From a virus (taxonomy: Duplodnaviria > Caudoviricetes): a DNA stretch of 64,000 nt. The stretch spans positions 128,001 to 192,000 of the IMG/VR virus record IMGVR_UViG_3300035670_000009; one strand, 5' to 3'. The notes beneath the pieces were generated by a model. The model made no database searches, was not told where the DNA came from, and worked only from the letters and a program-made list of their open reading frames with translations. Numbering within the stretch: the stretch's first letter is position 1; every line of letters starts with the position of its first letter. The translations under genes and the position numbers were made by a program. Shown in pieces: positions 17,131-52,417 of this stretch.

Positions 17131-19965
17131 TCAGACGACCAAATGAAGCTCAATGTTATTGAGCGGGGCCGGAACAACCAGGTCGAGAACGATCTCGATC
17201 CGATCGCGCAGCAGCGGATGAATCCGCAAAATGCGGATCGTGCCGTCGATCAGCTGCGAGCCCAGCTCAATGGTATTACCGTTGGTTTTGAAGAAGTCGA
17301 TGATCTTCGTGACCTCGTAATCCAGCTGGCGCACCATCGACGGAGTCGCATTGGTCCGGCCGATGTACGGACGGAGCCGACGGAGGAACAGGTAGGAAAT
17401 CGAGTCCACGTTGCGGCGGATCATCTCTTCCCGACGATTCAGGTCGAGATTGTCCGTCGTCAACGCGTGCCGCGTGTGCGGCGTGCCGTCACGGTCCTCC
17501 GTCACGATCCACACTCCTGCCTCGGCCATCCGATTCAGCTGCGTTTCGTTGAAGTACTTGTAACTACGCGTGAAATCGTCGAAACCGGCAACCTCGACGT
17601 TCGTGAGTCCCTGCTGCGGGACCACGCCCGACGCAAGACCCGCGAGCGCCGCGGCGAGGTAATAACCCGCCATAAGCGTGCCTGCTTCGCCCACCTGGTC
17701 CGGCCACACTGCGGCGACGCGGCGGTTCGAAAACGCACCGGCCCGCGTTGCGATGTCATCAGCGATCTCGTTGCGGTTGAGATTGTGATGCACCTCGACC
17801 CGCTGCGCGATAGACACAGGAGCGTCGGCGCCCGAGTAAAGCAGCAGCGAATTTTCAGAAAGCACCGCGTCTACAACGAACTCCTGATACTGTTCCTCGC
17901 CGAAACCGTCCACCGTGTACAGGTAACGTACGAGGTCGCCCGGCTGCACTTCGTTCGTAACGAAGTAGCCGCTTCCCTCGGACACCTGCAGCAGCGTGTA
18001 CTGCGTATTGGTGGCGTTCGGATCGTCGCTCAAGGTCGCCAGCACCGGCTCGGGCATTGTGAGTCCGGCCACGCCGGTGATTGCCGCGCCTTCGCCAACC
18101 AGGAGCTTGCTGGTCACCGCCTGCAAGGCGAAGAAACCAGCCTTCCAGTTGTTGGCGTACTCGTTCGACTCACCGTTGATATGCGCGGCGTACAGGTTGT
18201 GAACGCGAACGTCAAACGTCATCGGGACGAGGTTATACATGTCGTCCCGGCCCTTGATGCGCTCAAGAACCTGAACCCAGCTATCAAGATCCGTCGGCTC
18301 AAGAACCGCTGTGTACTTCACCACGGTTCCGTTGCTGTTGGAAAGCGCCTTGTAGACGCCCCACTTCAGCGGGTTGTCCGGGTGAAGCTGACCCGCAATC
18401 TTGTCCAGCTCGGCCACGCTCTGCACGCTGTTGACCTCGTCGGTCAGATCGCTAAGCCACTCGCGGTACTCGACGTAAAGCGTACCGCCACGAACGTCGA
18501 GCGGCTGTTCAACGCCGTTATCGGTCCATTCGGGATGGTAGGCGACGATGCCCTCGTGCACACAGATCTGCGTTGCTTCCTGCGCGTAGTTCTTCAACGG
18601 CGCAAAACCGATGCGGTTCTCAGACACCTGAATGTTGTCTTTGATGAACAGCCGCAGCTCGATGTCAGAAGCCGACGCAATTTCAAGCGGAAGATCGTCG
18701 CGAAGGATCAGCCGCCGAACAGGTCCGGCCTGGCTCGATTCCGCATTGATGTACCACTTGTCGCCCTTACGCAGCCCAGGAACCGGATCACCGGCATCTG
18801 CACCGTGGAAAGTGATCGTCACACCGTGCGAACCGATAGCCACCGCCACGTTGTGATCAACGACTTCGGTCGGGCCCGAATAGTCGAGACCCTTCACAGT
18901 GCGAACGGTGATCTCGGGAAAACCGGTCGGGCTGCTCTCGTCGAACAGGCCGCCCTTGGTGCACTCGACGATGTAGACGTCGTTCTTGTCGCCGTCGTAG
19001 CCGTCGCCGCCCGAGGTCGCTTCGACCTTGGTGAACTCCTGCTCCACGACTACGCGCCACTTCTGGCCGGTCACTAGCGCGTCCGGCGCGACGTTATCGT
19101 CGTCCGCCGCCACTGAGCAAGCGCTCGACGGATCGTAATCGAATGTCACCGTAAGCCCGCGGGTACCGATCGCCGTCGGCGTGCCCCAGTCTTCGGGCGT
19201 AACCTCAGCCACGTCGTCGTTGCCACTCGCCGAGCGGACGCGCAGCCGAGCAGCCGCGCAACCAACGACTGAGCTCTTGATAACCTCGATTGTGTACTCT
19301 TCTTCGATGTCGCCATCGACGAGGCCGTCGTACTCAGAAGCGTCGACCGAGGCCACGATGCAGTTATCGGGCCCCGCGATCTTCGTGAGCGTAGCGCTCG
19401 TCGACCCAACGGCATCCTGATTGTCCTGATCAGCCGCGGCCTCTTCGATCTGCGACGCGACCAGCTCGCTGGCGAAACCGGTGACAGTTGTCCACAGTTC
19501 CTTTTCCTCGCAGCTCTCGCTGTCGACTGCGCGAAGATAAACCACGTCGCCGCGCTGAACATCGCGATCGTTGAAGACCGAGCTGCGCGGATAGGCCACG
19601 CCATTGCTCTTGAACGCCAAGTCGCTCGACTGAATCCAGTTCGTGCGACCGCTGACCGCGGTGATCGTGGTCGACGTGTCGCCGAGCATGTGCTCGTAGA
19701 AGAGCAGCAACGCGTCGTCGATGTACAGCTTGGTGTACGACTCGTCGACGTTCGAACCCGGCAAACGACGCGGCCATGCGTAGCAGGCGTCGTTCAGATA
19801 GTCGTACGCGCCCAGACGGCAATCTCGTTTTTCGTCCGCGTCGTTGTAGCGATGGAGCATCGCGTGCGGGCCGGAGATATGAGCGCGCAGCGGCTCCGTG
19901 ATCTCCGTCGGGATGATCTGGAATTCCTGGAAAACGAGAACTTGTGGTTTAACGTAGCTCGACAT
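17131..19965 (-). CDS. contractile tail sheath protein
   Basis: 944 aa; N-terminal YVKPQVLVFQEF; C-terminal sheath domain (AAALAGL...QGLTN...LNRMAEAGV...IRRNVDSI...LRPYIG). Confidence 0.85.
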   Translation of the reverse strand: MSSYVKPQVLVFQEFQIIPTEITEPLRAHISGPHAMLHRYNDADEKRDCRLGAYDYLNDACYAWPRRLPGSNVDESYTKLYIDDALLLFYEHMLGDTSTTITAVSGRTNWIQSSDLAFKSNGVAYPRSSVFNDRDVQRGDVVYLRAVDSESCEEKELWTTVTGFASELVASQIEEAAADQDNQDAVGSTSATLTKIAGPDNCIVASVDASEYDGLVDGDIEEEYTIEVIKSSVVGCAAARLRVRSASGNDDVAEVTPEDWGTPTAIGTRGLTVTFDYDPSSACSVAADDDNVAPDALVTGQKWRVVVEQEFTKVEATSGGDGYDGDKNDVYIVECTKGGLFDESSPTGFPEITVRTVKGLDYSGPTEVVDHNVAVAIGSHGVTITFHGADAGDPVPGLRKGDKWYINAESSQAGPVRRLILRDDLPLEIASASDIELRLFIKDNIQVSENRIGFAPLKNYAQEATQICVHEGIVAYHPEWTDNGVEQPLDVRGGTLYVEYREWLSDLTDEVNSVQSVAELDKIAGQLHPDNPLKWGVYKALSNSNGTVVKYTAVLEPTDLDSWVQVLERIKGRDDMYNLVPMTFDVRVHNLYAAHINGESNEYANNWKAGFFALQAVTSKLLVGEGAAITGVAGLTMPEPVLATLSDDPNATNTQYTLLQVSEGSGYFVTNEVQPGDLVRYLYTVDGFGEEQYQEFVVDAVLSENSLLLYSGADAPVSIAQRVEVHHNLNRNEIADDIATRAGAFSNRRVAAVWPDQVGEAGTLMAGYYLAAALAGLASGVVPQQGLTNVEVAGFDDFTRSYKYFNETQLNRMAEAGVWIVTEDRDGTPHTRHALTTDNLDLNRREEMIRRNVDSISYLFLRRLRPYIGRTNATPSMVRQLDYEVTKIIDFFKTNGNTIELGSQLIDGTIRILRIHPLLRDRIEIVLDLVVPAPLNNIELHLVV

Positions 19966-28497: not shown

Positions 28498-29955
28498 TCA
28501 AGTGATGTAATTTTGCAGAACACAATGGTTTGCTGTCAACCAGCAATTTCCATATTTCTCGCTGAGGGTCGCGTAAGCCGCAATCTTATAGAAAGCGTAC
28601 TGCCGCGCAAGTGCCGAAGCCGCGGGTTTATTATCGCCCGCCTCCTTGGCAAGAGCTGCAACCTGCACGTCGCGAAGCGCGCTATGGTAAGCGCGCTTTT
28701 CCACGGCTTGCGGTCGTACACTGTGCGTCATAGCTACCTTTTCAGCCCAGACCTGGACAGGCATTGCCGCGGCCGGAGCCGGAAGAAATGCGTTGTTTTC
28801 AAGCTCGCCCGCGGTGTCCGGGTCGTTTGCAAGTTTACTGAAAATGCTATCTAGCGCGCTAGTCACAGCGCGCACCAGGTTATCGCTCGCGGCTTTTACA
28901 GTAAGCGTTAAGAAATCGCGGACGGGGAGCACCACTCCCGCATCGGCTAGCGCGCGCAGGACCTGCCCGAATTTCACGTTCTCGCAAGGCGCAAAGTCGA
29001 CCGGCGGCTGCGCGTTAGCCGTCGACGCCAGCGCAACTTGTGTCCAGGCGCGGGGGTCGTGGATTACCGCGCGCTCGGCCGCGGCCAGTTTTTCAAGTGC
29101 CGCGAGTTGGCTTTGCAGCTGCAGGCTGGTGGCAACACGATCGAAACCCAGCGGCGCTGTAACGCCCAGCTGTTCGGCCAACTCGGCCCCTGAGAGCACA
29201 CCAGCGCTGGCTGCCTTTTGCAGAGTGCCAGAGATGTAGGCAATGCGATCAGCGGGGCGGAAAACGTGGCTGATGTCGAAGAACGTCGGATCGGGGTTGT
29301 CGGCGTGAAGGATGTGGCCGTCAGCGAGAACCCGCCCCAGGTTGTGTTTCAGCCCGCCCGCCTTGCACATGCCGCCATTCTCGACAGAGTCGCAATACTC
29401 TGCGCGCGTGCGAGCTTTGTTTCCGCAGCCAGAGCAAACGTCGAAAGGAATCTTGCAGGCCATCGAAACACCGATATCGTCGCCGCGAGCCAATTTCTCC
29501 GTTTCTTTGTCGGCGAGCAGGCCGCCGTTGCGCTCGGCAGCCTCCTTGCTGGCATTTAGCGCGCAGATCAGCTCGATCCGGTGCATTGGCTCGTTGTAGG
29601 CAGCGAGCTTCACAACGCCGTAGCTTTTGGCCGGGTTCTTGTTGAGATGGTCGCGGTAGAAACGCGCAAACTTCTCGAACGTGTGGTGGTGCTTGCGGCA
29701 GCAGTCGCGAGTGAAACCGTCGGCATTGCGGTTTGGGCCGTAATCTTCGGTGGCGCCGATCGCGATCATGTGGACCGGGATCTCGTCCGCCGCGAACTTG
29801 ATGCGGCTGAGGCGCTCGGCGAAATCCACGCCCGCGCGTTTCACAAAAGCGTCCTTGTCGGCTCCCAGTAGGCCGCGGCTGGAAATTTTAATTAGCGACG
29901 CTACCGGCTCGCTGAAATCCTGCGAGTTCGGCTGGATGATCTTGATCATGCTCAT
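28498..29955 (-). CDS. putative prohead maturation serine protease with Cys-rich insert
   Basis: 485 aa; RDHLNKNPAKSYGVV and GVSMAC resemble the His and Ser motifs of HK97/assemblin-type proteases; CSGCG...YC...C insert; upstream of scaffold and capsid. Confidence 0.6.
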   Translation of the reverse strand: MSMIKIIQPNSQDFSEPVASLIKISSRGLLGADKDAFVKRAGVDFAERLSRIKFAADEIPVHMIAIGATEDYGPNRNADGFTRDCCRKHHHTFEKFARFYRDHLNKNPAKSYGVVKLAAYNEPMHRIELICALNASKEAAERNGGLLADKETEKLARGDDIGVSMACKIPFDVCSGCGNKARTRAEYCDSVENGGMCKAGGLKHNLGRVLADGHILHADNPDPTFFDISHVFRPADRIAYISGTLQKAASAGVLSGAELAEQLGVTAPLGFDRVATSLQLQSQLAALEKLAAAERAVIHDPRAWTQVALASTANAQPPVDFAPCENVKFGQVLRALADAGVVLPVRDFLTLTVKAASDNLVRAVTSALDSIFSKLANDPDTAGELENNAFLPAPAAAMPVQVWAEKVAMTHSVRPQAVEKRAYHSALRDVQVAALAKEAGDNKPAASALARQYAFYKIAAYATLSEKYGNCWLTANHCVLQNYIT

Positions 29956-33788: not shown

Positions 33789-36164
33789 TTAAGCGCTTGC
33801 GACATTGGAGAGGTCGGTGTCTGAGCCGCCTTCTTCTGGATACGGCTCAATCGTCTTTTGCTTGAGGAAGAGAATTACGTCGCCCAGCATTTCAAAGGCG
33901 TTACGCAACGAATCTTCCAGCTCTGGCATATCAGATTTGCCATAACGATCAGCGAACCGATCACCGTGCCAATAGAACATGAACAAAATGCGGCCCAGCT
34001 TGTCGAGGCCATTGGTCAGCTCGCCCATATAACGATCGACCAACGAATCGTCCCGGACAGCGCGCAGCATCGAGCCGATCATCGCCGTGTCGAACACTTC
34101 TTTCTGGCCTGTCTCGGCGGCCTGCATCACGCTGCGGATATCTTTTTTGTCCAGTCGCGTGTTCGGGTTATAGATCTGCCGATCGGTGTTGGCGGCCGCC
34201 ATGTCCGACACCGGCATACCAATATCTATGCCCATTTGAGTTGGGACGTCGGCGCCCATGATTGTTTCGCCGCCCATCACCGGACCCGGATCGGTCGGCG
34301 CCGTTGGGCCCTGATTGACCATCATCGGCGCGCCGTACGGATTGGCATACTTCACGCGGCAAGCGAACTTCTTTTTTGCCGCCGCTGTCTTGAGGATCGC
34401 GCGAGCAGCGTCCTCACGCAGACCATGATGCTCAACAAGCGTCACCAGCGCGGCAATCGGGCTGCGCGCGGCTTCTTTGTTGATCGTGACTTCTGTGCCG
34501 TTGTGGTAGACCTCGAGCGCGGCGGTCTTGCCTAGCAGTTCAAGCTGCGCGTCAGCCAGGTTGCCGGGCATCAGCGGCGGCATCTCGCTCTGGCCGCATC
34601 CGCACGCGCCCTGGTCCTCGGCCGTCTCATCGTCATCTTCGCCGGGAGCGCACTTGAGCAGCTTGTAGCCCTCGGGGACAAAAATGTCGCCCATCGAGCT
34701 GCGCAAACTGGAACCTTTCTTGCCGTTGAGATGGATCCGGACGCCGTCGCGCCACTTGTCGTAGTTCAGCGGGTCGGTATAGCAGCAGCTGGAGATGTGA
34801 CCCTTTGGCGGAAACTTCGAATGGTCCTCCATGTGGACCTCGTAACTCGTCACGCCGAATTCGCTCTCGCCGTACTCGCGGATCACGCGAACCGGAACGG
34901 TGGCGTCGCCGTTCTTGTGCACCAACATGTAGCGCCCGCTCGACGGAAGGCTGTTTGCGTCTGGTAAGCCGTTAAACCACTCTTCTTCTTCCTTGTCGGT
35001 CGGGCAGGCGACACAAAACACCTGGTCTGCGCGCGTGTTAATCCACTCAGGCTTGCCCTCGGTACGGACGACGGTGACAAAGTCCGAACGCTTCGCGGGC
35101 CCCATCGGGAACATGGCGATGTAAACCCGCTCAATGTTGCCCGGCTTGACGAGGATGTCGTAAAGACCCGAGCTGGTCGGGTTCCAAAGTTTCTTTTCAA
35201 CCTGAATGTGATAGGGAATCGACACGTTGTCCCGCTCGCGCTGATCGAGAATCAGCACGCCGTCGCGGAGCAGCTTTTCCTGGTCTTCCTCGGTAGTCTC
35301 CGGCGGAAGCTTGGTCTGCATTGTGACGTTCATCGTGATGATCTTGAGCCCTGCGACGGCCGGGCTCTTTTCAGGTGCCTCCGACAGCACACTGGCGATC
35401 TTCGGGCGATTTTCGCGTTCCTTGGCCGCCGCGATGGCTTCCTTGATCACGCCCAGGCCGTGAAACTCATCAAATGCCTTGGCCAGCGCCGGGGCGTCTT
35501 GGAACGTCTTGACGAGCATGTCGATCGTCGTGACGCGGGCTTCTTTAAGAAACCGCGGCAGATCTAACGCCCGGCCGATTTCCTGAAACACCAGCGCCGT
35601 GTTCATCGTGGCGCACTTAGCAAAAGTCGGCATCGCGGCCGTCATCATCTCGCGCAGCGTTGGCTTGGCCGAGCCAAACTTCGCCGGACTGCGAGAGAGC
35701 TGCGTGAAATCGGGCTGCCGCTGGCCCATTGACGACCGATTGCGGTCCACCGCGCTGCCCAAAATGTTGGGCTTGCGGTTCACCAAGTAGTTAATCCAGT
35801 TTTCTTTAAGCGGCACGAACATGTCCTGGTTTTTGATGTACAGGAGTTCGTGACCTTTAAGGTCGCCGTTAAGAAAAAAGACTGGAGCATAAAGCCAATT
35901 CGAGCCAACTTTGAACGCAAAAACGCCAATAGCTTTGGTGTTTTCGCGATTGCGGTCTAGCAGCTGAAAACCGATTTCGTGGTCCAGCAGCCGCGGAGCT
36001 GAATCACGCAGATAGGCGTGCGCCAGGTTACTGAACGCCTGCTCAAACGACGTGGAGTCGCCTTTGCCGCCAAAATCGGCGGCTTTCGTTTGCGTCCGGT
36101 CGTGCAAACGTACTACGTTCAGCCAGTGCGCCTGGGACGATTCAGTCTTCTTGCGGTTGTACAC
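33789..36164 (-). CDS. large head-module protein of unknown function
   Basis: About 791 aa; GTG start 8 nt after GGAGG; K-x-A motifs (TKAA, KEAR, GKTAA, NKEAA). Confidence 0.7.
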   Translation of the reverse strand: MYNRKKTESSQAHWLNVVRLHDRTQTKAADFGGKGDSTSFEQAFSNLAHAYLRDSAPRLLDHEIGFQLLDRNRENTKAIGVFAFKVGSNWLYAPVFFLNGDLKGHELLYIKNQDMFVPLKENWINYLVNRKPNILGSAVDRNRSSMGQRQPDFTQLSRSPAKFGSAKPTLREMMTAAMPTFAKCATMNTALVFQEIGRALDLPRFLKEARVTTIDMLVKTFQDAPALAKAFDEFHGLGVIKEAIAAAKERENRPKIASVLSEAPEKSPAVAGLKIITMNVTMQTKLPPETTEEDQEKLLRDGVLILDQRERDNVSIPYHIQVEKKLWNPTSSGLYDILVKPGNIERVYIAMFPMGPAKRSDFVTVVRTEGKPEWINTRADQVFCVACPTDKEEEEWFNGLPDANSLPSSGRYMLVHKNGDATVPVRVIREYGESEFGVTSYEVHMEDHSKFPPKGHISSCCYTDPLNYDKWRDGVRIHLNGKKGSSLRSSMGDIFVPEGYKLLKCAPGEDDDETAEDQGACGCGQSEMPPLMPGNLADAQLELLGKTAALEVYHNGTEVTINKEAARSPIAALVTLVEHHGLREDAARAILKTAAAKKKFACRVKYANPYGAPMMVNQGPTAPTDPGPVMGGETIMGADVPTQMGIDIGMPVSDMAAANTDRQIYNPNTRLDKKDIRSVMQAAETGQKEVFDTAMIGSMLRAVRDDSLVDRYMGELTNGLDKLGRILFMFYWHGDRFADRYGKSDMPELEDSLRNAFEMLGDVILFLKQKTIEPYPEEGGSDTDLSNVASA

Positions 36165-36247
36165 AGCGGCCACCTCCGTGCGGCATTTTCAGGGCGTGTA
36201 AATAGCGATTTACCGCGCCGAGACCTCTACATCCTACAGAATCGGGC

Positions 36248-38122
36248 TTATGGGCGCCATCCGCTCGTTGCGCCAGTCATTCCAAAGGTTTCTCCGCGGG
36301 CCAGCCCTGGCACAAAGCTGCTGCCCGCGGTGTCGCTAGTTGCGCCCCGATGCACGCTGCTAAGCAGGCCGCGTTCTTGGTACGAGCCGAGCATACGCGT
36401 CATCCAGTCCGGGTCGTTCGAAATATTCGCCATGCCGCGAACCATTTCTGGCTGAAAAGGCGGCTGCTGCTTGTGCGCCTCGATATTGTTAATGCCGTAT
36501 TTTTGCAGCGTATTAACGACGTTACGGCCAATTTTCGTGCCAATTGAATAGTGCAACACGGGCCGCTCCAAATAATGGCCCTGCAGGCTCTTGGGCGCGC
36601 CTGTCACACTGCCCGCGCGGGGTTGCCAATTTCGCTCGATCATCGAATATGGCACAACGTCGTCTGGGTTGTATTCGCCATGCTCGTCGGTCATACGGAC
36701 GTGATTCACCAGCCCGCGCGCGAGCAGCTCGATGTTGCGGCGGTGGCCGTTGACGTTAGAGTTTTGAAGTACCTGCCGCATGGCTTGAACGAAATACCGG
36801 CGGCCCTCGCCGATGCCCTTGTGGCGCACCACTTCGGACGGATTAGGCATGCCGTCGGTGAGCGAGTCACCTGCCTCGATCTCCTGGCCCTTTTTGACGG
36901 TGATCTCGCGGTCCACCGGGATGTAGTGGTCCTGGCCGCCGACCTGGACGTAGTAACCGCCCTGGGGCGCCTCCTTGATCTCTTGGACGTGGCCGTCAAC
37001 TTGGGCGTGCGTGGCGCCATTGGGGTATTTCTTGGGAACCTGGACCAACGCGTTGATCGCTTTGAAGCCGCCAATAGCGCTCGCGCCACCGACGCCGCCG
37101 GAATGTTTAGACGAGATCTGCGCTTGGGTAACTGGTTCCGACAGAGCTTGCGCTGCGGCGATGCCAACGTAGTCGCCAATAGGCGGCATTTTGCCCTTCT
37201 CGCGATAGCCGACGTCTCTGGCGTACACGCCGCCGTCGTCTGGGCCGCCGACCAACGGACTGCGAACCAGCAGATCCTGCACGCCCATTCCTTTGATATC
37301 TTTCAAAATCTTCGGCGTCAGAACAGTATTGCGCTTGTATGGTCCGACGGGTCGGGCGAGCAGCGCGCCTTCGTTGTCCATGTCGTCGACGTCAGTGGGA
37401 TAGCCGCGGTCGTGCGCGGTGGCATTGCGCTCCTGATCGTCGTCATCGTCGGCGGTGACGAGCAGCCGATGCGTCATTTGGCTGAGCTGCTTGCCGAAAA
37501 AACCCGCGTCCGCAGTAGCCGTCTTCAGGTCGAGCACGCCCTTGCGGGCGCCAAAGGCGCCCGCAAAATACTCTACGGGCCGTAAACCCTGGCCGTAGCC
37601 GCGCAGTACGGGAATAGGAATAGGCTCGTTTTTATGGTCGACGTACTGCAAGTCTGCGCCGATAAGTGAGTTGAGGCTGAACTTGTTTCCGCGGCTAACG
37701 CCGTGGACCTGGTGAGCCAGCGGGTTGTCCGTTGCCTTGGCTTCTTCGTAGACCTTTTCAACGAGGTCTTTTTGCGCGGTCGAGGCGAGCTGGAGCAGCT
37801 TGAGGTTACGCGTTTTCTCGTCGAGCGCGCGGTCGGCGAGAATGCCGCGGAGCTGCATCTGCACTTTGTGCTGCGCCTCCTTGGCGGCGACGGTCTGCTT
37901 GATGTCCTTCAGCCCGAACGAAAGACCACCCGCCGAATAAGACGTGTCGCGGGCCACGTCGTGAAGGTTCTTCATGACCTCCCGATACTTGTCGGGATGC
38001 TTTTCGGCGAGCTGCGTCGCGAGATTACCCATGTCTTTCTTAGTGAGGACGCGGTTGTAGTCGCGCAGATCTTCCGGCAGCGCTTCGTTAACGAGAATCT
38101 GGCCGAGTGTGGTTTTAAGCAT
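36248..38122 (-). CDS. rpoC: DNA-directed RNA polymerase beta-prime C-terminal chain (bridge helix, trigger loop)
   Basis: KTTLGQ start; bridge helix YFAGAFGARKGVLDLKTATADAGFFGKQL; trigger loop VGIAAAQALSEPVTQAQISSKHSGG; HRRNIELLARG. Confidence 0.9.
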   Translation of the reverse strand: MLKTTLGQILVNEALPEDLRDYNRVLTKKDMGNLATQLAEKHPDKYREVMKNLHDVARDTSYSAGGLSFGLKDIKQTVAAKEAQHKVQMQLRGILADRALDEKTRNLKLLQLASTAQKDLVEKVYEEAKATDNPLAHQVHGVSRGNKFSLNSLIGADLQYVDHKNEPIPIPVLRGYGQGLRPVEYFAGAFGARKGVLDLKTATADAGFFGKQLSQMTHRLLVTADDDDDQERNATAHDRGYPTDVDDMDNEGALLARPVGPYKRNTVLTPKILKDIKGMGVQDLLVRSPLVGGPDDGGVYARDVGYREKGKMPPIGDYVGIAAAQALSEPVTQAQISSKHSGGVGGASAIGGFKAINALVQVPKKYPNGATHAQVDGHVQEIKEAPQGGYYVQVGGQDHYIPVDREITVKKGQEIEAGDSLTDGMPNPSEVVRHKGIGEGRRYFVQAMRQVLQNSNVNGHRRNIELLARGLVNHVRMTDEHGEYNPDDVVPYSMIERNWQPRAGSVTGAPKSLQGHYLERPVLHYSIGTKIGRNVVNTLQKYGINNIEAHKQQPPFQPEMVRGMANISNDPDWMTRMLGSYQERGLLSSVHRGATSDTAGSSFVPGLARGETFGMTGATSGWRP

Positions 38123-38123
38123 C

Positions 38124-38363
38124 TCACGGCTTCCAGAGCATCTTGTCGATCGGCTTGGGTGTGAGGTCGTTGACCACTACAGTCTTATCAACGCCGAGAA
38201 CGCGAAGAAGATTATGAAAGTCGTCATCGCCAACGTGCGAGCAGATGATGTGATCGTCATGCTGCAGCGCCACGTAGATCGGGTTTCCCAGGTCATCTTC
38301 AACGATGACGCTGTGCGCCCGCTGCTCGTGTGGCTGCAGGTTGTGTTGCAGCTTAACGCGCAC
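38124..38363 (-). CDS. small hypothetical protein
   Basis: 79 aa, overlaps the upstream stop and ends 1 nt before the next ATG. Confidence 0.65.
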   Translation of the reverse strand: MRVKLQHNLQPHEQRAHSVIVEDDLGNPIYVALQHDDHIICSHVGDDDFHNLLRVLGVDKTVVVNDLTPKPIDKMLWKP

Positions 38364-39087
38364 GCTCGAGGCTCCTGAACAACGCCGCCACGGCCGCTGC
38401 CTTCAGCTGCGTCTCTGTCGGCGCGTCCGGGTTCTGCTCGGCAAATTGGGCCAGCGGTTTATCCCACCAATGCGCCATTTTTCCGGCCGACGGGTCCATC
38501 GGTGCCTGGCTCGGATCCATCGGCCCGCCCGGGGGCATCGGGCCGCCGGGGGGCTGCGGACCAGCTGGCGCGTTGGGGTCCTGGGGCGGCGGGGCCATCG
38601 GGCCGCCAGGTAATGCCGTCTCGGCAGGCGGCGCGCCGGTTGTGCCCGGCGGAAGAACGAGCGACTCGGGCGGAACCTGGACCCCCATCGCGTTCATAAT
38701 TGCCGTTAGCTGCTGCTGCATGTTATAGAGCCGATAGTCAAGCATCTGCATCATCTGCTCGGGCTTGAGTTTTTGCTGGCCAGGAACTCCGCCCTGCGGC
38801 GTGGCAGGCGGCATCGGGGCCGGAGCGGCCGCGGGAGGAGCGGCAGCTGTTGCGGCGCCAGTCGGATCCTGCGAGGGGTCAATCGGCGCAGCGCCCATGG
38901 CGGCCGTGGCAGGATCGACGGGCTGCGCAGCGCCCTGAACGCCCAGCTGCGAAGGGTCGGGAGCTTCGCCGCCCATTGGAGGCGCGCCCTGAGCGGCCAT
39001 CATGGCAGCATCCGACGGCACGACCGCGGACTTCTCGAACGCGTGACGAGCCATCTTTAGCAGCTCGGGATTGACCGTGAAACTCAT
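38353..39087 (-). CDS. Pro/Ala/Gln-rich, probably disordered protein
   Basis: 244 aa; SD GGAGG; central helix QMLDYRLYNMQQQL. Confidence 0.7.
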   Translation of the reverse strand: MSFTVNPELLKMARHAFEKSAVVPSDAAMMAAQGAPPMGGEAPDPSQLGVQGAAQPVDPATAAMGAAPIDPSQDPTGAATAAAPPAAAPAPMPPATPQGGVPGQQKLKPEQMMQMLDYRLYNMQQQLTAIMNAMGVQVPPESLVLPPGTTGAPPAETALPGGPMAPPPQDPNAPAGPQPPGGPMPPGGPMDPSQAPMDPSAGKMAHWWDKPLAQFAEQNPDAPTETQLKAAAVAALFRSLERAR

Positions 39088-39100
39088 GGGAACCTCCGTG

Positions 39101-42100
39101 TTAACTCTCGACTATATGCACCGGGGTATCGACCTCAATCTCGCCTCGCCGATAGGCCTTAATGGCGTCCTGCCGTGACTTATATACCCGCGGCTTCGCG
39201 CGTTTGTCGACCCGGCTGCTGGCCAGGTAAATCCCGGACTGAAACTCAGCCTGCGGAATATAGTGCGCTTTGAAGTTAGCCGCCGCAAACAAGTTTTTTG
39301 AGGGAAGCATCTTTTCGACGGCTTCCTTTGCCGCGTCGTCCGTGCTAGGAACGTGATACTGCATCGCGTCCCCGTCGAAGTCGGCGTTAAAACCCTTGGT
39401 AATGACCGGATTGACCTCCATCACCTTGTTCTTAGTGAGCTTTGGGTAGAAGGCCATCATACCGTATCGATGAAGCACCGGCGCACGGTTGATTACAATC
39501 GGCCGGGACGACATCTGCCGCTCCAGCTCCGCGTGCGCCTCCTTGTTGCGGTCCTCGACGTGCTGGAGGGCCTGCATCCGCGGCAACCCCCGCCGCACCA
39601 AGCCGCGCACCACGAACGGCTTGTAGACCTCCCAGGCTTTGTCCTCGGGCAGCGCCACCTCGTCCATGTCCAGGTCCGGGTTTGGCGTGATTACGGCGCG
39701 GCCCACCAGGTCGACCGTGGTGCCTAGAAGTTTGCGTTGAACGGTGCCGTACTTCGGCGAACTGCCGAAAATGTGCTTCAAGAATCCCTTGACCTGCCGC
39801 TCCTGATTCTTGGGCTGCGTCGGATCTCCCAGGCCAGAGACCGCCTTCATCGCGTCATACAGGCCGAGGCGCTCGTTGCCGTACTCCGCCAGGGCGCCGG
39901 AGGCGTCCTTCAGCGCGCTGTTTGAGTCGATCAACTCCTTGTACAGATAATTCGCGTCAGCCACGAGCGGGAGCTTCTTGGCGCCCATCGTCGAGACCGG
40001 CCGGAACAACGGCGGCAAGACGGGCATCTTGGTGAGCATCCACTCCTGGGGATGAATTCCCTGGCTCTCGGCGGCCTTGAGAAAACCGAGCTTGCGCACG
40101 GCGGCGTCGCGGAGCGTTTTGCGGCCCGACTTAATGTCTTCTCGGCACTGTTCAATAGCCTTGGGAAGATTAATCCGGCCAAGCGCGTCTTTAATCGCGC
40201 TAGGACCCGACTTGTCGAACAGCTGCGTCTCGCCCGCCAAGACAGAGCGAAACTGCTTTTCGGTAAGTCCCAAAACTCGACGAATTGGCTCTTCCATAAC
40301 CGGATTGGGCATCGGCTCGTGCAAAGATATCTTTGCCCAACGATTTCCGCCGTGTCCGCCGGTTAATTTCTCGTCGAATAGGCCGCCCGGAACTGGCTTC
40401 AATCGTCCTTTCCAGTCCACTGTTTCAGAACTGGTGATTTCTCGATCTTCAGCCAGCTGATCGACGTCTTTGTCGGCGATGGCCATGATGTGCGTTTTAG
40501 TACCGGTGCGGACAGTGTTAATGCCGCTGGCCCGCAATTGATTGACAAATTTCTCATAAACGTGCGGCACTTTGGGCAGCGGCGGCGTATAGCCCGACAT
40601 GAACTGTGACCAGTACTCGGGGTTGGCCTGCCCGCGGACCATCTTTGCGTCACGGATGACCTTTCCGGCGCCGTGGCTTAAAAGCGCGCCCAGGTCCAGC
40701 ATGCCAACGCGCTTGGCGCCCTCCGAGCCGCCTTTAGCGGGAGTTCCTTCTGCCGTGTACGCGCCCATTGCGCGACCCTGCCCCTTAGACTCCGACGTGT
40801 GGTGAAGTTTCATAAAGAACCGGTGGCCGGTCAGCACGCCTTTGATCTTACGACCGGTCTCCGGATCAATGACGTCCTCAGTGTCGGAGAGGCCGTGCTT
40901 CCCAAGCTCGTTCTGCGCAAACGCAATGATGTCTTTTTCGCTGTCGAAGTCCTTTATCTTGAAAGGCTGTCCGGTTTTCGCGGCGACTTTACCCAGTGCA
41001 GCTTCGATAACCTGAGAGGCATTTACGCGAGAGATCAGCCCCAGCGGCGAAACCAGAACCTCCATCGGGCTGCCGTCCTTGTCGTGCGGCATCTGGTGGT
41101 CCGGGACGATGTCGGCAACAACGCCTTTGTCACCAAAACGCCCTGTAAGCTTGTCGCCCACCTGCATCTCGGCGGTGCTTTTCACGACGACCGACACGCC
41201 CTTATCAGTGTGCTCGACGTCAGTGACGATACCCGGCGAGTGATGATCCCAGGTGATCGTATCATTACTGAACGCGCCCGCGCGTCCGCGGTGAACTTTG
41301 CCGTAAGTGGTTTCCTTGGCTTTAGCCTGCAGCACCAGCGGGTCGCCGTAGTTGACTACGGTCCCCTTTTGAATAGCGCCCTTGTCGTCGAACTGGGCCA
41401 GCGTCTTCTTGTCGTACTCAGAGGGGAAGAGCGACACGAAAGCTTTCTTGCCAACGTGCGTGTTGTCGCTCCACTCAGCCTCGTGCTGGTACATGTGCTG
41501 GCTAGTGAGCTTCTTGGCCGCCGACTCCGAAATCACCACGGCATCTTCGTAGACCTTGCCCCTGAAAGGAAGGTAGCCAACGCGAAGGTTCTTGCCCAAA
41601 GCAGCTGAGCCCTGCTTGTCGGTGAAGTTCGAGTGCGCCAAAAGCTGCCCGGGCTTAATCGTGTCGCCCGGCTGCACAGCTGGCGTCTGGTGCCAAAAGG
41701 TCTTGCGGTTGAACGGCATGTCGTTGTAGAGATCGACTGTCGATTTGTTACCGTCTCGATCGCGGAGCACGATCTCGTCGGGCGACACGGAAACAACCTG
41801 GCCGTGGAACTGGGCCTTCACGGCGCCAAGCTTTTCGCCCATCTCGTCTTCGTGGCTGATGCCGTCCTTGTCGACAACAGCCGACTGCACGAAGGGCGCT
41901 TCTGCGTCGTTCAAGGGCAGCGCTTGGGTAAACATGCGGCTGCCCATGATCGCGCGCTGGCCCTTAATCATGCTCTTGAGCGGCAGCATGTTCGAGAGCG
42001 CCGAGAAGGTGCTGTCCATGTGCGGCAGAGAATATTGAACCTCTTCCCGCGGCATGTACTTCATCTTGCCGCCCACGAGAGCCGCGACCATCGGCAGGTC

Positions 42101-43471
42101 GGTTTTCTCCTCGCCAGGAAACGCCACGGGCATGTCGGCCAGTTCGCCCGGCGTCTTGTATTCCTGCGCGCCGGTCTGCATGTTGCGCACCGGCGTATAG
42201 ATCTTGCCGTCAGAACCCTTGACGGCGCCCCGCGCGAAGCGCATGTCGACGCCCGCTTTGCCCGACTCCGGCGTGCGCAGAAAATCGATGTAGCCAAGGT
42301 GGCTGGGCTGCACGGCGCGGGATTCCACCGGCACTGCGTCCAGCGAACCGATGCCGCCCTCGCCCATACGAGTCACGCGGTTCTGGTGGTCGAAGATTTC
42401 GGCCGGGTTAATTTCTTCGAGCGAGCTGCCCAAGCCCGAGCCAATCAACGCAGCATTGATCGCCTTGTTGAAGAACCCCGTAGGCACGTGGTCAAGATTT
42501 TTCTTCGCCGTGGCCTTCCAAAGCAACTTGCGCAGCGCCTGCTTGTCTTTACTGAAGCGCTCAGCAATCAGGTCCTCGGGTCCGACAACGCTTTGATATG
42601 CCATTGCGTCGCGGTCGTCTGGATCGGCCTCTTTGCGATTAACGGCAATGAGCTTTTTCGTAATGTCGAGAATCGCTTCGGGGGTAAGGTTCTTGTATTC
42701 CTTGCCAAGAGTGCGCCGCGTAACGTCGGGGTCGAGTTCCATGCGGGCAAACTCTGTCGCAATAGCTTGCTGCTTAGCGGCCGCGTCCAATCCCGGAGTT
42801 TGCTTGTAAACAAGTCGCTGGTAGAGCTTGTCGAGAGTGCCCGCGTCGCCCTTCTCCATGTTGACGGCGGTGATCTCGTTGCCCCAAGCGCCGCGGATAT
42901 CGGCATCTTTGGCGCCGAGCGCTTTGAGCAGCGGCATCAGCGGAATCTGGGCCTGGCCAATGTTAATTTTCATCACGCCGGTCTTCGGGTCGAGGAAGTA
43001 CCGGTGCATGCGTCCCTTGCCGGGCAGCACGTTAACGTGCGCCTCCAGCTCGCCGTTGTCTTTCTCGCGCGTGTAGACGCCCGCCTTGAGCCGCATCTGG
43101 TGGGCCAGGGTGTACTCGACGCCCCGGTTCACAAACGTGCCCGAGTCAGTGAGGTACGGCACGTGCGCAATCGTCTGCTGACGTTTGGCGATCGGCTGCC
43201 CGGTGGCGTTGTCGATTAAATTCCAAGTGCCGGTGAGCCGCCGGTGCAACGAGTTTCCGGTAAGAACGGCCCGTTTTTGATCGCGCTTGTTGTAGCGCTC
43301 CGGCCCCGTGTAATTCACGTCCGAAAGTTGGAGCGTGTAGAGATCGTTTTTGATCGGCTCGATCGCGCTGGCGCTTTGGAGCGCGCGATCAAAAATGCCG
43401 GAACGCAGCGCGTGGATGTCACCAAATGCGCGGTGTTGCGGCGGCGTTTGCCCGAGAATCGAGTCTGGCAT
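39101..43471 (-). CDS. rpoB: RNA polymerase beta subunit fused to the beta-prime N-terminal half (catalytic chain)
   Basis: Beta motifs PYLTDSGTFVNRGVEY, GDKLTGRFGDKGVV, FMKLHH, GAKRVGML; beta-prime motifs PVLPPLFRP, LLGTTVDLVGRAVI, NRAPVLH and catalytic FNADFDGD. Confidence 0.93.
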   Translation of the reverse strand: MPDSILGQTPPQHRAFGDIHALRSGIFDRALQSASAIEPIKNDLYTLQLSDVNYTGPERYNKRDQKRAVLTGNSLHRRLTGTWNLIDNATGQPIAKRQQTIAHVPYLTDSGTFVNRGVEYTLAHQMRLKAGVYTREKDNGELEAHVNVLPGKGRMHRYFLDPKTGVMKINIGQAQIPLMPLLKALGAKDADIRGAWGNEITAVNMEKGDAGTLDKLYQRLVYKQTPGLDAAAKQQAIATEFARMELDPDVTRRTLGKEYKNLTPEAILDITKKLIAVNRKEADPDDRDAMAYQSVVGPEDLIAERFSKDKQALRKLLWKATAKKNLDHVPTGFFNKAINAALIGSGLGSSLEEINPAEIFDHQNRVTRMGEGGIGSLDAVPVESRAVQPSHLGYIDFLRTPESGKAGVDMRFARGAVKGSDGKIYTPVRNMQTGAQEYKTPGELADMPVAFPGEEKTDLPMVAALVGGKMKYMPREEVQYSLPHMDSTFSALSNMLPLKSMIKGQRAIMGSRMFTQALPLNDAEAPFVQSAVVDKDGISHEDEMGEKLGAVKAQFHGQVVSVSPDEIVLRDRDGNKSTVDLYNDMPFNRKTFWHQTPAVQPGDTIKPGQLLAHSNFTDKQGSAALGKNLRVGYLPFRGKVYEDAVVISESAAKKLTSQHMYQHEAEWSDNTHVGKKAFVSLFPSEYDKKTLAQFDDKGAIQKGTVVNYGDPLVLQAKAKETTYGKVHRGRAGAFSNDTITWDHHSPGIVTDVEHTDKGVSVVVKSTAEMQVGDKLTGRFGDKGVVADIVPDHQMPHDKDGSPMEVLVSPLGLISRVNASQVIEAALGKVAAKTGQPFKIKDFDSEKDIIAFAQNELGKHGLSDTEDVIDPETGRKIKGVLTGHRFFMKLHHTSESKGQGRAMGAYTAEGTPAKGGSEGAKRVGMLDLGALLSHGAGKVIRDAKMVRGQANPEYWSQFMSGYTPPLPKVPHVYEKFVNQLRASGINTVRTGTKTHIMAIADKDVDQLAEDREITSSETVDWKGRLKPVPGGLFDEKLTGGHGGNRWAKISLHEPMPNPVMEEPIRRVLGLTEKQFRSVLAGETQLFDKSGPSAIKDALGRINLPKAIEQCREDIKSGRKTLRDAAVRKLGFLKAAESQGIHPQEWMLTKMPVLPPLFRPVSTMGAKKLPLVADANYLYKELIDSNSALKDASGALAEYGNERLGLYDAMKAVSGLGDPTQPKNQERQVKGFLKHIFGSSPKYGTVQRKLLGTTVDLVGRAVITPNPDLDMDEVALPEDKAWEVYKPFVVRGLVRRGLPRMQALQHVEDRNKEAHAELERQMSSRPIVINRAPVLHRYGMMAFYPKLTKNKVMEVNPVITKGFNADFDGDAMQYHVPSTDDAAKEAVEKMLPSKNLFAAANFKAHYIPQAEFQSGIYLASSRVDKRAKPRVYKSRQDAIKAYRRGEIEVDTPVHIVES

Positions 43472-48293: not shown

Positions 48294-49103
48294 TCAATTC
48301 TTGGGTACGAGGATGTACGGCTTTCCGTTGATCACAATGGTGCCGCCCAGCTCAACTGAAGTGTCTTTGAACTTGGAATACGGCACCTTACGTTTGCCGT
48401 ACAGCTCCTGAATCTCGCGGACATCGCCGTCCTGTGGTTCAGTAACGTTCGGGTCGTAGTAAGGGGCCATAAGGTTGCCGTTGGCCAGGTGCGGCAGACC
48501 CAACGCATGACCAAGCTCGTGGCAAATCACAGCCACAGCCATATTGAAGTTCCAGTGCTCAGCTTCGTCGTACATCTGGTCAAGCTGAATGCCCTCATGT
48601 ACGCCGCAGGGCAGCTCGCTCCAGGCAAGCGTGCCGCCCTTGCTATCCAGGCCGTGCTTCTGCCCTTTTCCCGATCGCGCCAAAATATTGGCTTTCGTTG
48701 GATCCTCGACGGGCTCGGGCTCGATGTTGCACACGCGCGCCCACTGGCTGAACGCAATATCAAACGCCTGCTTAGCCTGAGCCGTCGTGATGCCGGGCAG
48801 CACAATGTCGGGATGGTAAGTGATCGCCTTGTGCGGCCACTTGCACTCCGTGTCGCCTGCCGAAAAGTTGAAATCGGGCAGGCCGCAACGACGACGTTCA
48901 AGCACATGCGCCGTGGTTTCGTCGACGCGGCCATCCGGATCCAGCCCGTGAAAACGCTGGTACTCGCGAATGGCGCGCGTCAATTCCGCGCCTTTAATCT
49001 GCCGAACCTTTGCCCAGGTTTTAGTACCGAAGTATCCGAACGCGAATAGTTTTCGAAGGATCTCTTCGGTCGGCAGAACGTGATTTGATGGCATCCTTGC
49101 CAT
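48294..49103 (-). CDS. peptidoglycan-binding domain plus M10 (matrixin-like) zinc metalloprotease
   Basis: AIREYQRFHGLDPDGRVDETT (PG-binding 1); RRCGLPD cysteine switch; HELGHALGLPH; Met-turn LMAPYY. Confidence 0.85.
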   Translation of the reverse strand: MARMPSNHVLPTEEILRKLFAFGYFGTKTWAKVRQIKGAELTRAIREYQRFHGLDPDGRVDETTAHVLERRRCGLPDFNFSAGDTECKWPHKAITYHPDIVLPGITTAQAKQAFDIAFSQWARVCNIEPEPVEDPTKANILARSGKGQKHGLDSKGGTLAWSELPCGVHEGIQLDQMYDEAEHWNFNMAVAVICHELGHALGLPHLANGNLMAPYYDPNVTEPQDGDVREIQELYGKRKVPYSKFKDTSVELGGTIVINGKPYILVPKN

Positions 49104-51283: not shown

Positions 51284-52417
51284 TTATTTCCTTCCGGGGG
51301 AGAACTGCGCCAGCACGTCGTCGCCGTAACGAGCGATGACCTGGTCAATGAGGTTGGGGCGCTCCGTCTGGCCGCGAATGGCTTTCAGTGCAAGCTGGTG
51401 CCGATAGCGCGGGTCAAGCTGCGCCCGCCACATTTTGTGATTTCGATCGCTGTCGCGGATGAAGTCGCCCCGACGCTTGGCCTCGGTGAGCTGGCTCTTG
51501 ATGTTCTCGAAAACCGGCTTGCTGGGGTCGTAAGGAATCGGCTTCTGGATAGCGAGCGGGTCAAGCATCTGTCGCCCCTGATCGAGGTAGACGCTGCCGC
51601 CGTCCTTCTCTAGTTGCTGGATTTTTTTGTAGTAGGCCGGTTCTTCGGACAAGTGATCCTTGGCAATTTCTTTGGCGACTTCTGCATTGTTCGTGTGTTC
51701 GCGCTCATGCTTCTTGCCTTCTGCCAAGGCCTCCGGTGGAAACTGCTCATCGGGCACATGATCCGCCTGGCCGCCGGGCAAGACGTCCAGGACTTTTTCA
51801 GCCGCCGCCTTCAGCTCGCCCCGGCTGGTGGCCGAGTCAAACTTGCTAACGTTGTTGTTACCGAGCACCTTCGCGCGTCGGACAGCCACCGTGATGTGGA
51901 ACTGATGATCGCCATTGGGCAGAGCTGACAAACCGTAGCTCTTACGCAAAGCGGCCAACTCTGGGCTGGCGACTTGAATCGCCCAGACGCGGCTGATGCC
52001 GTCGATGTTCTTAGGCGCGAGTTCTTTAACGGGACCAAGGGCGTAGTGAAAATTGTGCCCGCGCTCGTTGATCTTGTTCGCGCCAATTTTGCTGACCTCG
52101 TCAGCGGTCATCACCGAAATGTGCGCATTCAGCAAATCTGGCTTTACGTCTGGAACGTTAAGGGCACCAGCAAGTGGTAATTCAGCGCCTGGAGCAGTCA
52201 TGGCGTCGAATACGCCGCGCACCAGGGCATTTGGGACCGACAGCAACAGCCAGCCGCTTTTAGAGACGTACAGCCGCCCGGCGAGATAGTGATTGGTCGT
52301 CGCCGCGGCACCGGTCTTTGAAAGCCAACCGGCCGCGTTTCCAACGGCATAGGCCGGATGAAGCTTGAAACCGGTCGCGTCCCACGCCAAAGGATCGAGA
52401 ATGGAAAACCCGTCCAT
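51284..52417 (-). CDS. 2H phosphoesterase domain fused to a DUF5661-like domain
   Basis: Two Hx(S/T) motifs, NAHISV and QFHITV; downstream EHT..AKEIAKDHLSEEPAYYKKI. Confidence 0.65.
   Translation of the reverse strand: MDGFSILDPLAWDATGFKLHPAYAVGNAAGWLSKTGAAATTNHYLAGRLYVSKSGWLLLSVPNALVRGVFDAMTAPGAELPLAGALNVPDVKPDLLNAHISVMTADEVSKIGANKINERGHNFHYALGPVKELAPKNIDGISRVWAIQVASPELAALRKSYGLSALPNGDHQFHITVAVRRAKVLGNNNVSKFDSATSRGELKAAAEKVLDVLPGGQADHVPDEQFPPEALAEGKKHEREHTNNAEVAKEIAKDHLSEEPAYYKKIQQLEKDGGSVYLDQGRQMLDPLAIQKPIPYDPSKPVFENIKSQLTEAKRRGDFIRDSDRNHKMWRAQLDPRYRHQLALKAIRGQTERPNLIDQVIARYGDDVLAQFSPGRK

Follow-up and report, generated by a model that had tools for sequence, protein, structure and literature searches.

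What kind of enzyme results when a phage fuses the beta subunit of a bacterial-type RNA polymerase (RNAP) to the front of beta-prime and leaves the rest of beta-prime as a separate chain? The question is raised by two genes in a 64,000-nucleotide (nt) stretch of viral DNA, referred to as the window, which covers bases 128001-192000 of the 203,910-bp IMG/VR virus record IMGVR_UViG_3300035670_000009. Direct terminal repeats and a CheckV completeness of 100% mark it as a complete phage genome; its G+C content is about 58% and the minus strand holds about three quarters of its genes. One of the two genes encodes the fusion (P0001, 1456 amino acids, aa) and the other the C-terminal part of beta-prime (P0002, 624 aa). 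That these are the two chains of an RNAP with this architecture is near certain. On balance we favour a wider explanation, in which the phage owns a reduced two-chain RNAP that has its own sigma, is made late, is packaged and is injected.

The identity of the chains is clear from both profiles and structures. In P0001 the Pfam domains come in the order Rpb2_2, Rpb2_3, Rpb2_6 (residues 555-906, E 5e-49), Rpb1_1 (1121-1190) and Rpb1_2 (1311-1386), and alignments to PDB chains match residues 82-1009 to bacterial beta and residues 1061-1453 to residues ~142-540 of beta-prime. The chain is made up of a complete beta (~1-1005), a linker of ~10 aa and the N-terminal half of beta-prime (~1006-1456), with the catalytic NADFDGD at 1362-1368. 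P0002 begins with MLKTTLGQ, which aligns with Streptomyces beta-prime at residue 659 (LKTTLGR); its residues 2-493 correspond to ~659-1170 of Streptomyces and Mycobacterium beta-prime, and it carries Rpb1_5, the region of the bridge helix and trigger loop. An earlier account made from the letters of this stretch alone (the sequence-only reading) had described a first chain collinear from beta into beta-prime up to NADFDGD, a second that starts at TTxG and holds the bridge helix and trigger loop, a total length far below that of E. coli beta plus beta-prime, and the absence of the large lineage-specific insertions. The domain order and the alignments agree with all of this; the two chains add up to 2080 aa, whereas the E. 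coli chains in the PDB have 1342 + 1407, and P0002 has no SI3-type insertion.

What happened at the join and at the cut can be seen in an alignment of 93 concatenated beta plus beta-prime sequences. The junction consists of the conserved C-terminal motif of beta, about 10 residues, and then the N-terminal element of beta-prime that in bacteria precedes the zinc ribbon; the regions of both subunits around it are otherwise kept. The beta-prime Cys4 zinc ribbon itself is cleanly deleted. Only two blocks of 12 or more columns are shared by at least 80% of bacteria but missing in at least 80% of the fused phage enzymes; the ribbon, 31 columns long, is one of the two. P0001 has one cysteine and P0002 has none, and with so few the second Cys4 zinc site cannot form either. 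The end of P0001 falls where bacterial sequences differ in length, P0002 begins exactly at LKTTLGQ, and in relatives that have a single chain the sequence is continuous across the split point. The enzyme retains every universal catalytic element, but the zinc ribbon of beta-prime, both zinc sites and the lineage-specific insertions are all gone. The two chains are the catalytic core of a phage-owned bacterial-type (two-barrel) RNAP that has been reduced to two chains, with beta joined almost end to end with beta-prime and beta-prime cut in a variable surface loop just ahead of TTxG. The rifampicin pocket, mapped through an alignment with T. aquaticus and given in E. coli numbering, has the changes Q513S, F514S, D516E, S531T and L533M and keeps H526 and R529, so that insensitivity of the phage enzyme to rifampicin is plausible.

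Is the fusion real? The sequence-only reading had itself allowed that it might be an assembly artefact. A word-indexed search finds 881 homologues of P0001, many of them on contigs of ~200 kb; the best 120 of the 881 are at least 74% identical and 1446-1486 aa long, save eight of ~1800-1822 aa. In an exhaustive search the top 150 representatives of 50%-identity clusters all belong to the fusion family, at 44-60% identity. We also compared 67 related IMG/VR loci, with 45-83% identity to P0002, of which 64 hold both RNAP genes. In 64 of these 64 the fusion stops near residue 1455 and beta-prime-C begins with residue 1, and in all related loci but one truncated locus beta-prime-C is followed by a homologue of the 794-aa protein that follows it here. 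The same split layout is found in the cultured Salmonella phage Arash and in the group of Vibrio phage D69. An arrangement that recurs in every two-gene locus, in at least 150 clusters and in cultured phages is not an artefact of assembly.

A related argument would be that the phage has recently captured a host rpoB-rpoC pair, or that bacterial contamination or mis-assembly has produced a chimeric open reading frame (ORF), and it is true that the top database matches are bacterial beta and beta-prime. However, the genome is a complete phage genome with terminal repeats, the layout occurs in hundreds of independent assemblies as well as in cultured phages, and in the tree the Bacteria are monophyletic, with the fused clade outside them. 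Over the most conserved 310 residues the best bacterial matches reach only 29-35% identity and are scattered across Patescibacteria, Planctomycetota, Bacteroidota and others. Completeness, recurrence, tree position and low bacterial identity together refute this explanation, and we give it practically no weight.

The homologues also carry a very heavy load of inteins, which we record as an observation in its own right. About two thirds of the 50%-identity representatives have 1-5 extra segments at recurrent sites and reach up to 3350 aa. The sites lie near P0001 residues 402, 589, 775, 813, 894, 918, 1043, 1240 and 1370, the last just past NADFDGD. Intein_splicing, Hint and LAGLIDADG/Hom_end (homing-endonuclease) domains are present in the insertions of the two longest homologues scanned, and insertions occur in relatives of both RNAP genes (P0125-P0274; L013, L040, L055, L058, L059, L063, L069, L072). 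The window's own copy of the RNAP is free of inteins.

Where the enzyme belongs is a question for phylogeny, and the sequence-only reading had proposed one against cellular, phiKZ and mReC RNAPs; ours compares bacterial enzymes with fused and unfused phage enzymes. Our main tree (IQ-TREE, 93 rows, 1894 columns, LG+G4, quick search, support from the Shimodaira-Hasegawa-like approximate likelihood ratio test, SH-aLRT) places the Bacteria in one clade (100) and all fused phage enzymes in another (100), outside the Bacteria. Within the fused enzymes the split clade (91) is sister to a clade of full fusions (99). A second quick search on a 44-row subset under the LG+C20+F+G4 mixture model gives 97 for the split clade, 89 for the full fusions and 100 for the bacteria. 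Arash and D69 branch deepest in the split clade, L207 next, and then the group that holds this window. It counts against our placement that the trees have SH-aLRT support only and were built without archaeal, eukaryotic or published mReC sequences; there is also compositional heterogeneity, and some branches are long. For Rhizobium phage RHph_Y65 and Vibrio phage Va2 a quick search found no beta, and only their beta-prime is in the tree. One side result of the tree concerns metagenome-assembled contigs labelled 'uncultured Pseudomonadales' or 'Gammaproteobacteria' (L094, L097, L103, L111, L118, L145, L162); their rpoB/rpoC group inside the Patescibacteria, and the labels are probably wrong.

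A scan of viral contigs found four layouts: the single-chain fusion, the split form, separate genes for beta-prime (~900 aa) and then beta (~1010 aa), and the RPB1 of giant viruses. The single-chain fusions, ~2020-2200 aa long, are found on dozens of contigs of ~165-195 kb (L179-L255, e.g. L181, L183, L186, L192, L194), and the split form belongs to a large clade of phages of ~180-235 kb. The single-chain enzymes are collinear with the fusion plus beta-prime-C and share the same short junction and the same deletion of the zinc ribbon; they differ in that beta-prime is uncut at TTxG, whereas in the split form it is cut and one or more genes stand between the halves. With unfused outgroups the simplest history would be one fusion followed by one split. 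In the ancestor of the clade beta and beta-prime were probably fused in one chain, and the split form probably arose once.

Both rearrangements have counterparts in cells. Helicobacter and Wolbachia have an rpoB-rpoC fusion, in which the C-terminus of beta is joined to the N-terminus of beta-prime as it is here, and in cyanobacteria and plastids beta-prime is split into gamma (RpoC1) and RpoC2. Residues 189-557 of cyanobacterial gamma align with P0001 1089-1452, and residues 85-409 of RpoC2 align with P0002 100-414. The sequence-only reading had likened the phage cut to the cyanobacterial one, just after TTxGR. The two do adjoin, but by the arithmetic of coordinates in 8h3v (chains E and B) the phage cut would lie ~15 residues upstream, on the opposite side of the motif, before TTxGR and not after it. 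P0002 also differs from the enzymes of cyanobacteria and plastids in being only 624 aa long and in lacking the SI3-type insertion, which in RpoC2 is large and lies in the trigger loop. The cellular fusions and splits all keep the zinc sites, two alpha subunits and omega. We know of no cellular enzyme that combines the fusion with the split.

Among phages the closest comparison is with cultured relatives. Megablast of the RNAP locus matches none of the deposited phages, and tblastn against them finds gp206 of Arash, with 32.6% identity across 98% of the fusion, as well as Vibrio phages D69, D148 and D181. Arash (OQ632216) has the same two-chain layout (gp206 of 1525 aa and gp216 of 606 aa) and a sigma homologue, gp10, in its structural block. 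It also shares an order of genes that runs from the fusion through beta-prime-C (gp216), gp218, gp222 and the major capsid protein (MCP) gp226 to the tail genes. Arash and D69 are only ~25-33% identical to this phage, and Arash has its portal gene ahead of the fusion and a helicase after beta-prime-C. The parts of the Arash paper drawn on here name the chains 'beta' and 'beta-prime' and say nothing of the fusion, of the missing zinc sites or of the absence of alpha (PMC10585845).

The sequence-only reading had suggested that this class of enzyme might already be known as the mReC lineage. The likeness is real, since the RNAPs of mReC, the multisubunit-RNAP-encoding Caudovirales of Weinheimer and Aylward (2020), come from large tailed phages, many of them freshwater, and have a cellular-like beta and beta-prime that branch outside the cellular clades (PMC7481178). 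The present phage also has what marks that lineage, a tailed-phage contig with beta and beta-prime recognisable by cellular profiles. For the fused layout, however, the identification is not established. Supplementary Data 2 of that work lists separate and mostly non-adjacent beta (~1144-1160 aa) and beta-prime (~1392-1428 aa) with no 1456/624 pair, although a single row, with 1512 + 913 aa, might represent a split-type pair, and its text mentions fusion for crAssphage only (PMC7481178). Judged by tabulated lengths, then, mReC has separate full-length chains of ~1150 and ~1415 aa, and this phage has chains of 1456 + 624 aa.

The RNAPs of phiKZ and AR9 are phage two-barrel enzymes without alpha and omega, and their virion form is made late and injected. 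They differ in having 4-5 chains, with beta and beta-prime each divided into two or more, and two paralogous sets (virion and non-virion), in being very divergent from cellular enzymes, and in using gp68 or gp226 instead of a sigma70 homologue (PMC7824862, PMC13282480). The present phage has a single set, an intact beta that is fused, strong Pfam matches and a sigma70-family gene. A bacterial-type RNAP together with a phage sigma gene is also found in the cultured Cobetia phage Carin-5 (L092, PV155638, 1083-7908) and in related IMG/VR contigs. In Carin-5 the sigma, beta-prime (1083 aa) and beta (927 aa) are adjacent separate genes; enzymes of this type are unfused, with beta-prime (~900-1080 aa) followed by beta (~930-1010 aa) in the replication module, and they form a separate long-branched lineage in the tree.

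Can such an enzyme work without the other subunits of a bacterial RNAP? The sequence-only reading had found no alpha or omega gene in the window, and profile searches extend this to the complete 203,910-bp genome, which has no match to the three alpha models PF01000, PF01193 and PF03118 or to the omega model PF01192, nor any second beta or second RNAP set; the control genomes all matched in those searches. We lean towards an enzyme that is independent of host alpha and omega, because the genes are absent, identity to any host enzyme is low and phage RNAPs without alpha provide a precedent. The covalent link between beta and beta-prime would then stand in for the scaffold of the alpha dimer and for omega. 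Against this, host alpha and omega could still be recruited, and the absence of phage genes is silent on that point.

The phage might accordingly supply the catalytic chains of a hybrid enzyme that borrows the host alpha dimer, and perhaps omega or a host sigma, and would not be independent of alpha at all. The beta/beta-prime fusion of Helicobacter still works with alpha, and the parts of beta and beta-prime that flank the phage fusion are otherwise retained. Even so, identity to any bacterial RNAP is only ~30% in the most conserved region, and because of this it is unlikely that host-specific contacts with alpha have been kept across hosts as unlike as Salmonella, Vibrio and that of this phage. 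If the enzyme is packaged and has to act on entry, alpha would have to be packaged too, and the phiKZ-type enzymes function without it (PMC13282480). In our opinion the hybrid is improbable, though it deserves to be weighed.

The same window encodes a sigma70-family factor, which the sequence-only reading overlooked and which is the sole sigma gene found in the genome. Its match to Sigma70_r3 (35.5 bits) is above the Pfam cut-off and its match to r4 is weak. It aligns with residues 169-353 of B. subtilis SigA with regions 2.2-4 recognisable, and it is 27% identical to Arash gp10 (E 1e-18). Close relatives have sigma homologues on the same contigs as the RNAP, and 12 of the 15 fused-RNAP genomes searched, from both sub-clades, have sigma-domain matches. 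We incline, if only narrowly, to the view that the phage sigma pairs with the phage core, and promoter recognition would then come from the phage's own protein.

Several things speak against this pairing. Region 2.3 is without the aromatic residues that melt the -10 element, and a simple k-mer enrichment over the 53 intergenic regions that are 60 nt or longer reveals no clear shared promoter motif. The phage sigma could instead redirect the host RNAP, which is what reviews assume for the sigma factors of large phages (PMC7824862, PMC13282480).

When in infection would the enzyme act? The RNAP genes lie within a long block of late and structural genes on one strand, the strand of the MCP, and the gene for the 794-aa protein starts 74 nt downstream of beta-prime-C. 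The sequence-only reading had put them inside the head module. They do belong to the late block next to the head genes, but the portal and terminase genes lie in other parts of the genome, and their place is better described as the upstream edge of the head genes, inside the late block, where 'their' means the RNAP genes. Virion-packaged phage RNAPs include N4 gp50, phiKZ vRNAP, crAss gp66 and P23-45 gp96. Genes of this class are encoded among late or structural genes, and the same is found here.

The sequence-only reading had also suggested packaging in the virion, and homologues of these proteins have indeed been detected in particles. Published virion mass spectrometry of Arash gives 3516 spectra for the fusion Gp206, the most detected protein, 1333 for the MCP Gp226, 1210 for the beta-prime-C Gp216 and 467, with 100% coverage, for the sigma Gp10 (PMC10585845). 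By analogy we think it moderately likely that the enzyme of the present phage is made late and packaged for injection. It would be synthesised alongside the structural proteins, enclosed in the particle and carried in with the DNA, and the early genes would then be transcribed without the host RNAP. What weakens the analogy is the Arash preparation itself. In it 116 proteins pass the filter, including ribonucleotide reductases and a kinase, and the authors state that abundant infection proteins may co-purify (PMC10585845). The RNAP in it could be such an abundant contaminant.

One could argue from this that the enzyme is not a virion polymerase. The host RNAP would transcribe the early genes, the phage RNAP would be made during infection and take over middle and late transcription, and the signal in the particles would be carry-over from the cytoplasm. 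The clearly non-structural enzymes in the Arash list fit this argument (PMC10585845). So does the presence of only one RNAP set, unlike the vRNAP plus non-virion nvRNAP of phiKZ, and a sigma-dependent enzyme is akin to ordinary intracellular transcription. However, an enzyme that switches transcription would be expected among early or middle genes, and these genes have been kept in the late structural block, on the strand of the head and tail genes, from Arash to this phage. The top spectral count of Gp206 also argues against it, as does a sigma homologue that is both encoded among the virion genes of Arash and detected (PMC10585845). We regard a purely intracellular role as unlikely, though not very unlikely, and continue to prefer packaging.

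The two genes between the halves were unrelated genes in the sequence-only reading. There are indeed two, and they deserve different treatment. The gene for the 244-aa Pro/Ala-rich protein occurs only in closer relatives, and relatives of ~50% identity have 3-5 kb of other genes in its place; the protein has no Pfam and no PHROG match. This narrow distribution makes it probable that the protein does not belong to the enzyme. To call the 79-aa gene unrelated would be too simple, since tblastn recognises it, at 30-65% identity, in ~50 of the 67 related loci. It stops 1 nt ahead of the ATG of beta-prime-C, and in the other loci it mostly stands directly upstream of beta-prime-C and ends within ~40 nt of it. 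The family alignment holds 27 sequences of 25-65% identity, and the AlphaFold model (predicted local distance difference test, pLDDT, 82.7) has five strands and one helix. No Pfam profile matches the protein, and a fold search of the model against the PDB returned nothing at E <= 0.001. A predicted complex with beta-prime-C scored 0.00, which weighs neither way. In Arash and D69 the gene could not be recognised by eye among the small ORFs directly upstream of beta-prime-C. We consider the 79-aa protein a candidate accessory or assembly factor.

The strongest form of our proposal would be a self-sufficient, zinc-free holoenzyme that has neither alpha nor omega and consists of the two chains, the sigma and the 79-aa protein as a new small subunit or assembly factor, packed in the capsid and injected. 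That much is doubtful in our opinion. If it were true, this would be the smallest known sigma-dependent RNAP of cellular type, and nature would have demonstrated that a covalent link between beta and beta-prime can take the place of the alpha scaffold.

Table 1. Genes at and around the RNAP locus, with positions in the window
Feature	Coordinates	Strand	Evidence
Beta/beta-prime-N fusion P0001, 1456 aa	39101-43471	(-)	ORF, Pfam, PDB alignment; full length kept in relatives
Pro/Ala/Gly-rich low-complexity protein, 244 aa	38353-39087	(-)	ORF between RNAP halves
Conserved small gene, 79 aa, GTG start	38124-38363	(-)	ORF, 27-sequence alignment
Beta-prime-C P0002, 624 aa	36248-38122	(-)	ORF, Pfam Rpb1_5, beta-prime alignments
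794-aa weak homologue of Arash gp218 ('structural protein')	33789-36173	(-)	Sequence match
gp222-like gene	28498-29955		PHROG 2774 match; counterpart of Arash gp222
Major capsid protein, 308 aa	25152-26078	(-)	30% identity to Arash gp226 MCP, E 6e-35
Sheath	17131-19965		Counterpart in Arash tail genes
Sigma70-family factor, 270 aa	4270-5082	(-)	Pfam, PHROG 351, SigA alignment, Arash gp10 homologue

Scans with Pfam and PHROG found no match for the near neighbours of the RNAP genes (proteins of 419, 794, 618, 309, 131, 437, 341 and 208 aa, and others) except the PHROG 2774 match of the gp222-like gene. Three observations elsewhere in the window are recorded for their own sake. The minus-strand gene at 48294-49103 encodes a 269-aa protein with a PG_binding_1 (peptidoglycan-binding) domain followed by a matrixin-type M10 metallopeptidase domain (E 4e-19). 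A second minus-strand gene, at 51284-52417, encodes a protein of 377 aa that combines a 2H phosphoesterase domain (2H-SAK) with DUF5661. The 204-kb genome has 39 copies of the 12-bp palindrome AWAGATATCTWT, at a mean spacing of ~5.1 kb. Its positions in the window are 1877, 2487, 12567, 21953, 22967, 32052, 33464, 40323, 48169, 50988, 58414 and 59582, and the copy at 40323 falls inside the fusion gene. We considered the palindrome as a promoter and rejected it, because the copies are mostly within genes.

Our search of the literature found no paper on a fused bacterial-type phage RNAP with a sigma, nor on this layout. Beyond the sequence-only reading, this work adds the sister relationship of the split and single-chain forms, the sigma gene and the conserved 79-aa gene. 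Reviews of jumbo phages describe phages that encode highly divergent, multi-chain RNAPs without sigma homologues, and phages without an RNAP that encode sigma factors for the host enzyme (PMC7824862, PMC13282480). It is important to realize that in this lineage a near-cellular catalytic core and a sigma70-family factor occur together, while alpha, omega and the two zinc sites are lacking. The fused clade is abundant in metagenomes, those of freshwater among them, and its cultured members, Arash on Salmonella and D69 on Vibrio, make self-sufficiency testable. The relation between the split and single-chain forms shows that the boundaries of RNAP subunits have been reshuffled in viruses. If the enzyme is active alone, it would be a minimal model for what alpha, omega and the zinc ribbon add to bacterial transcription.

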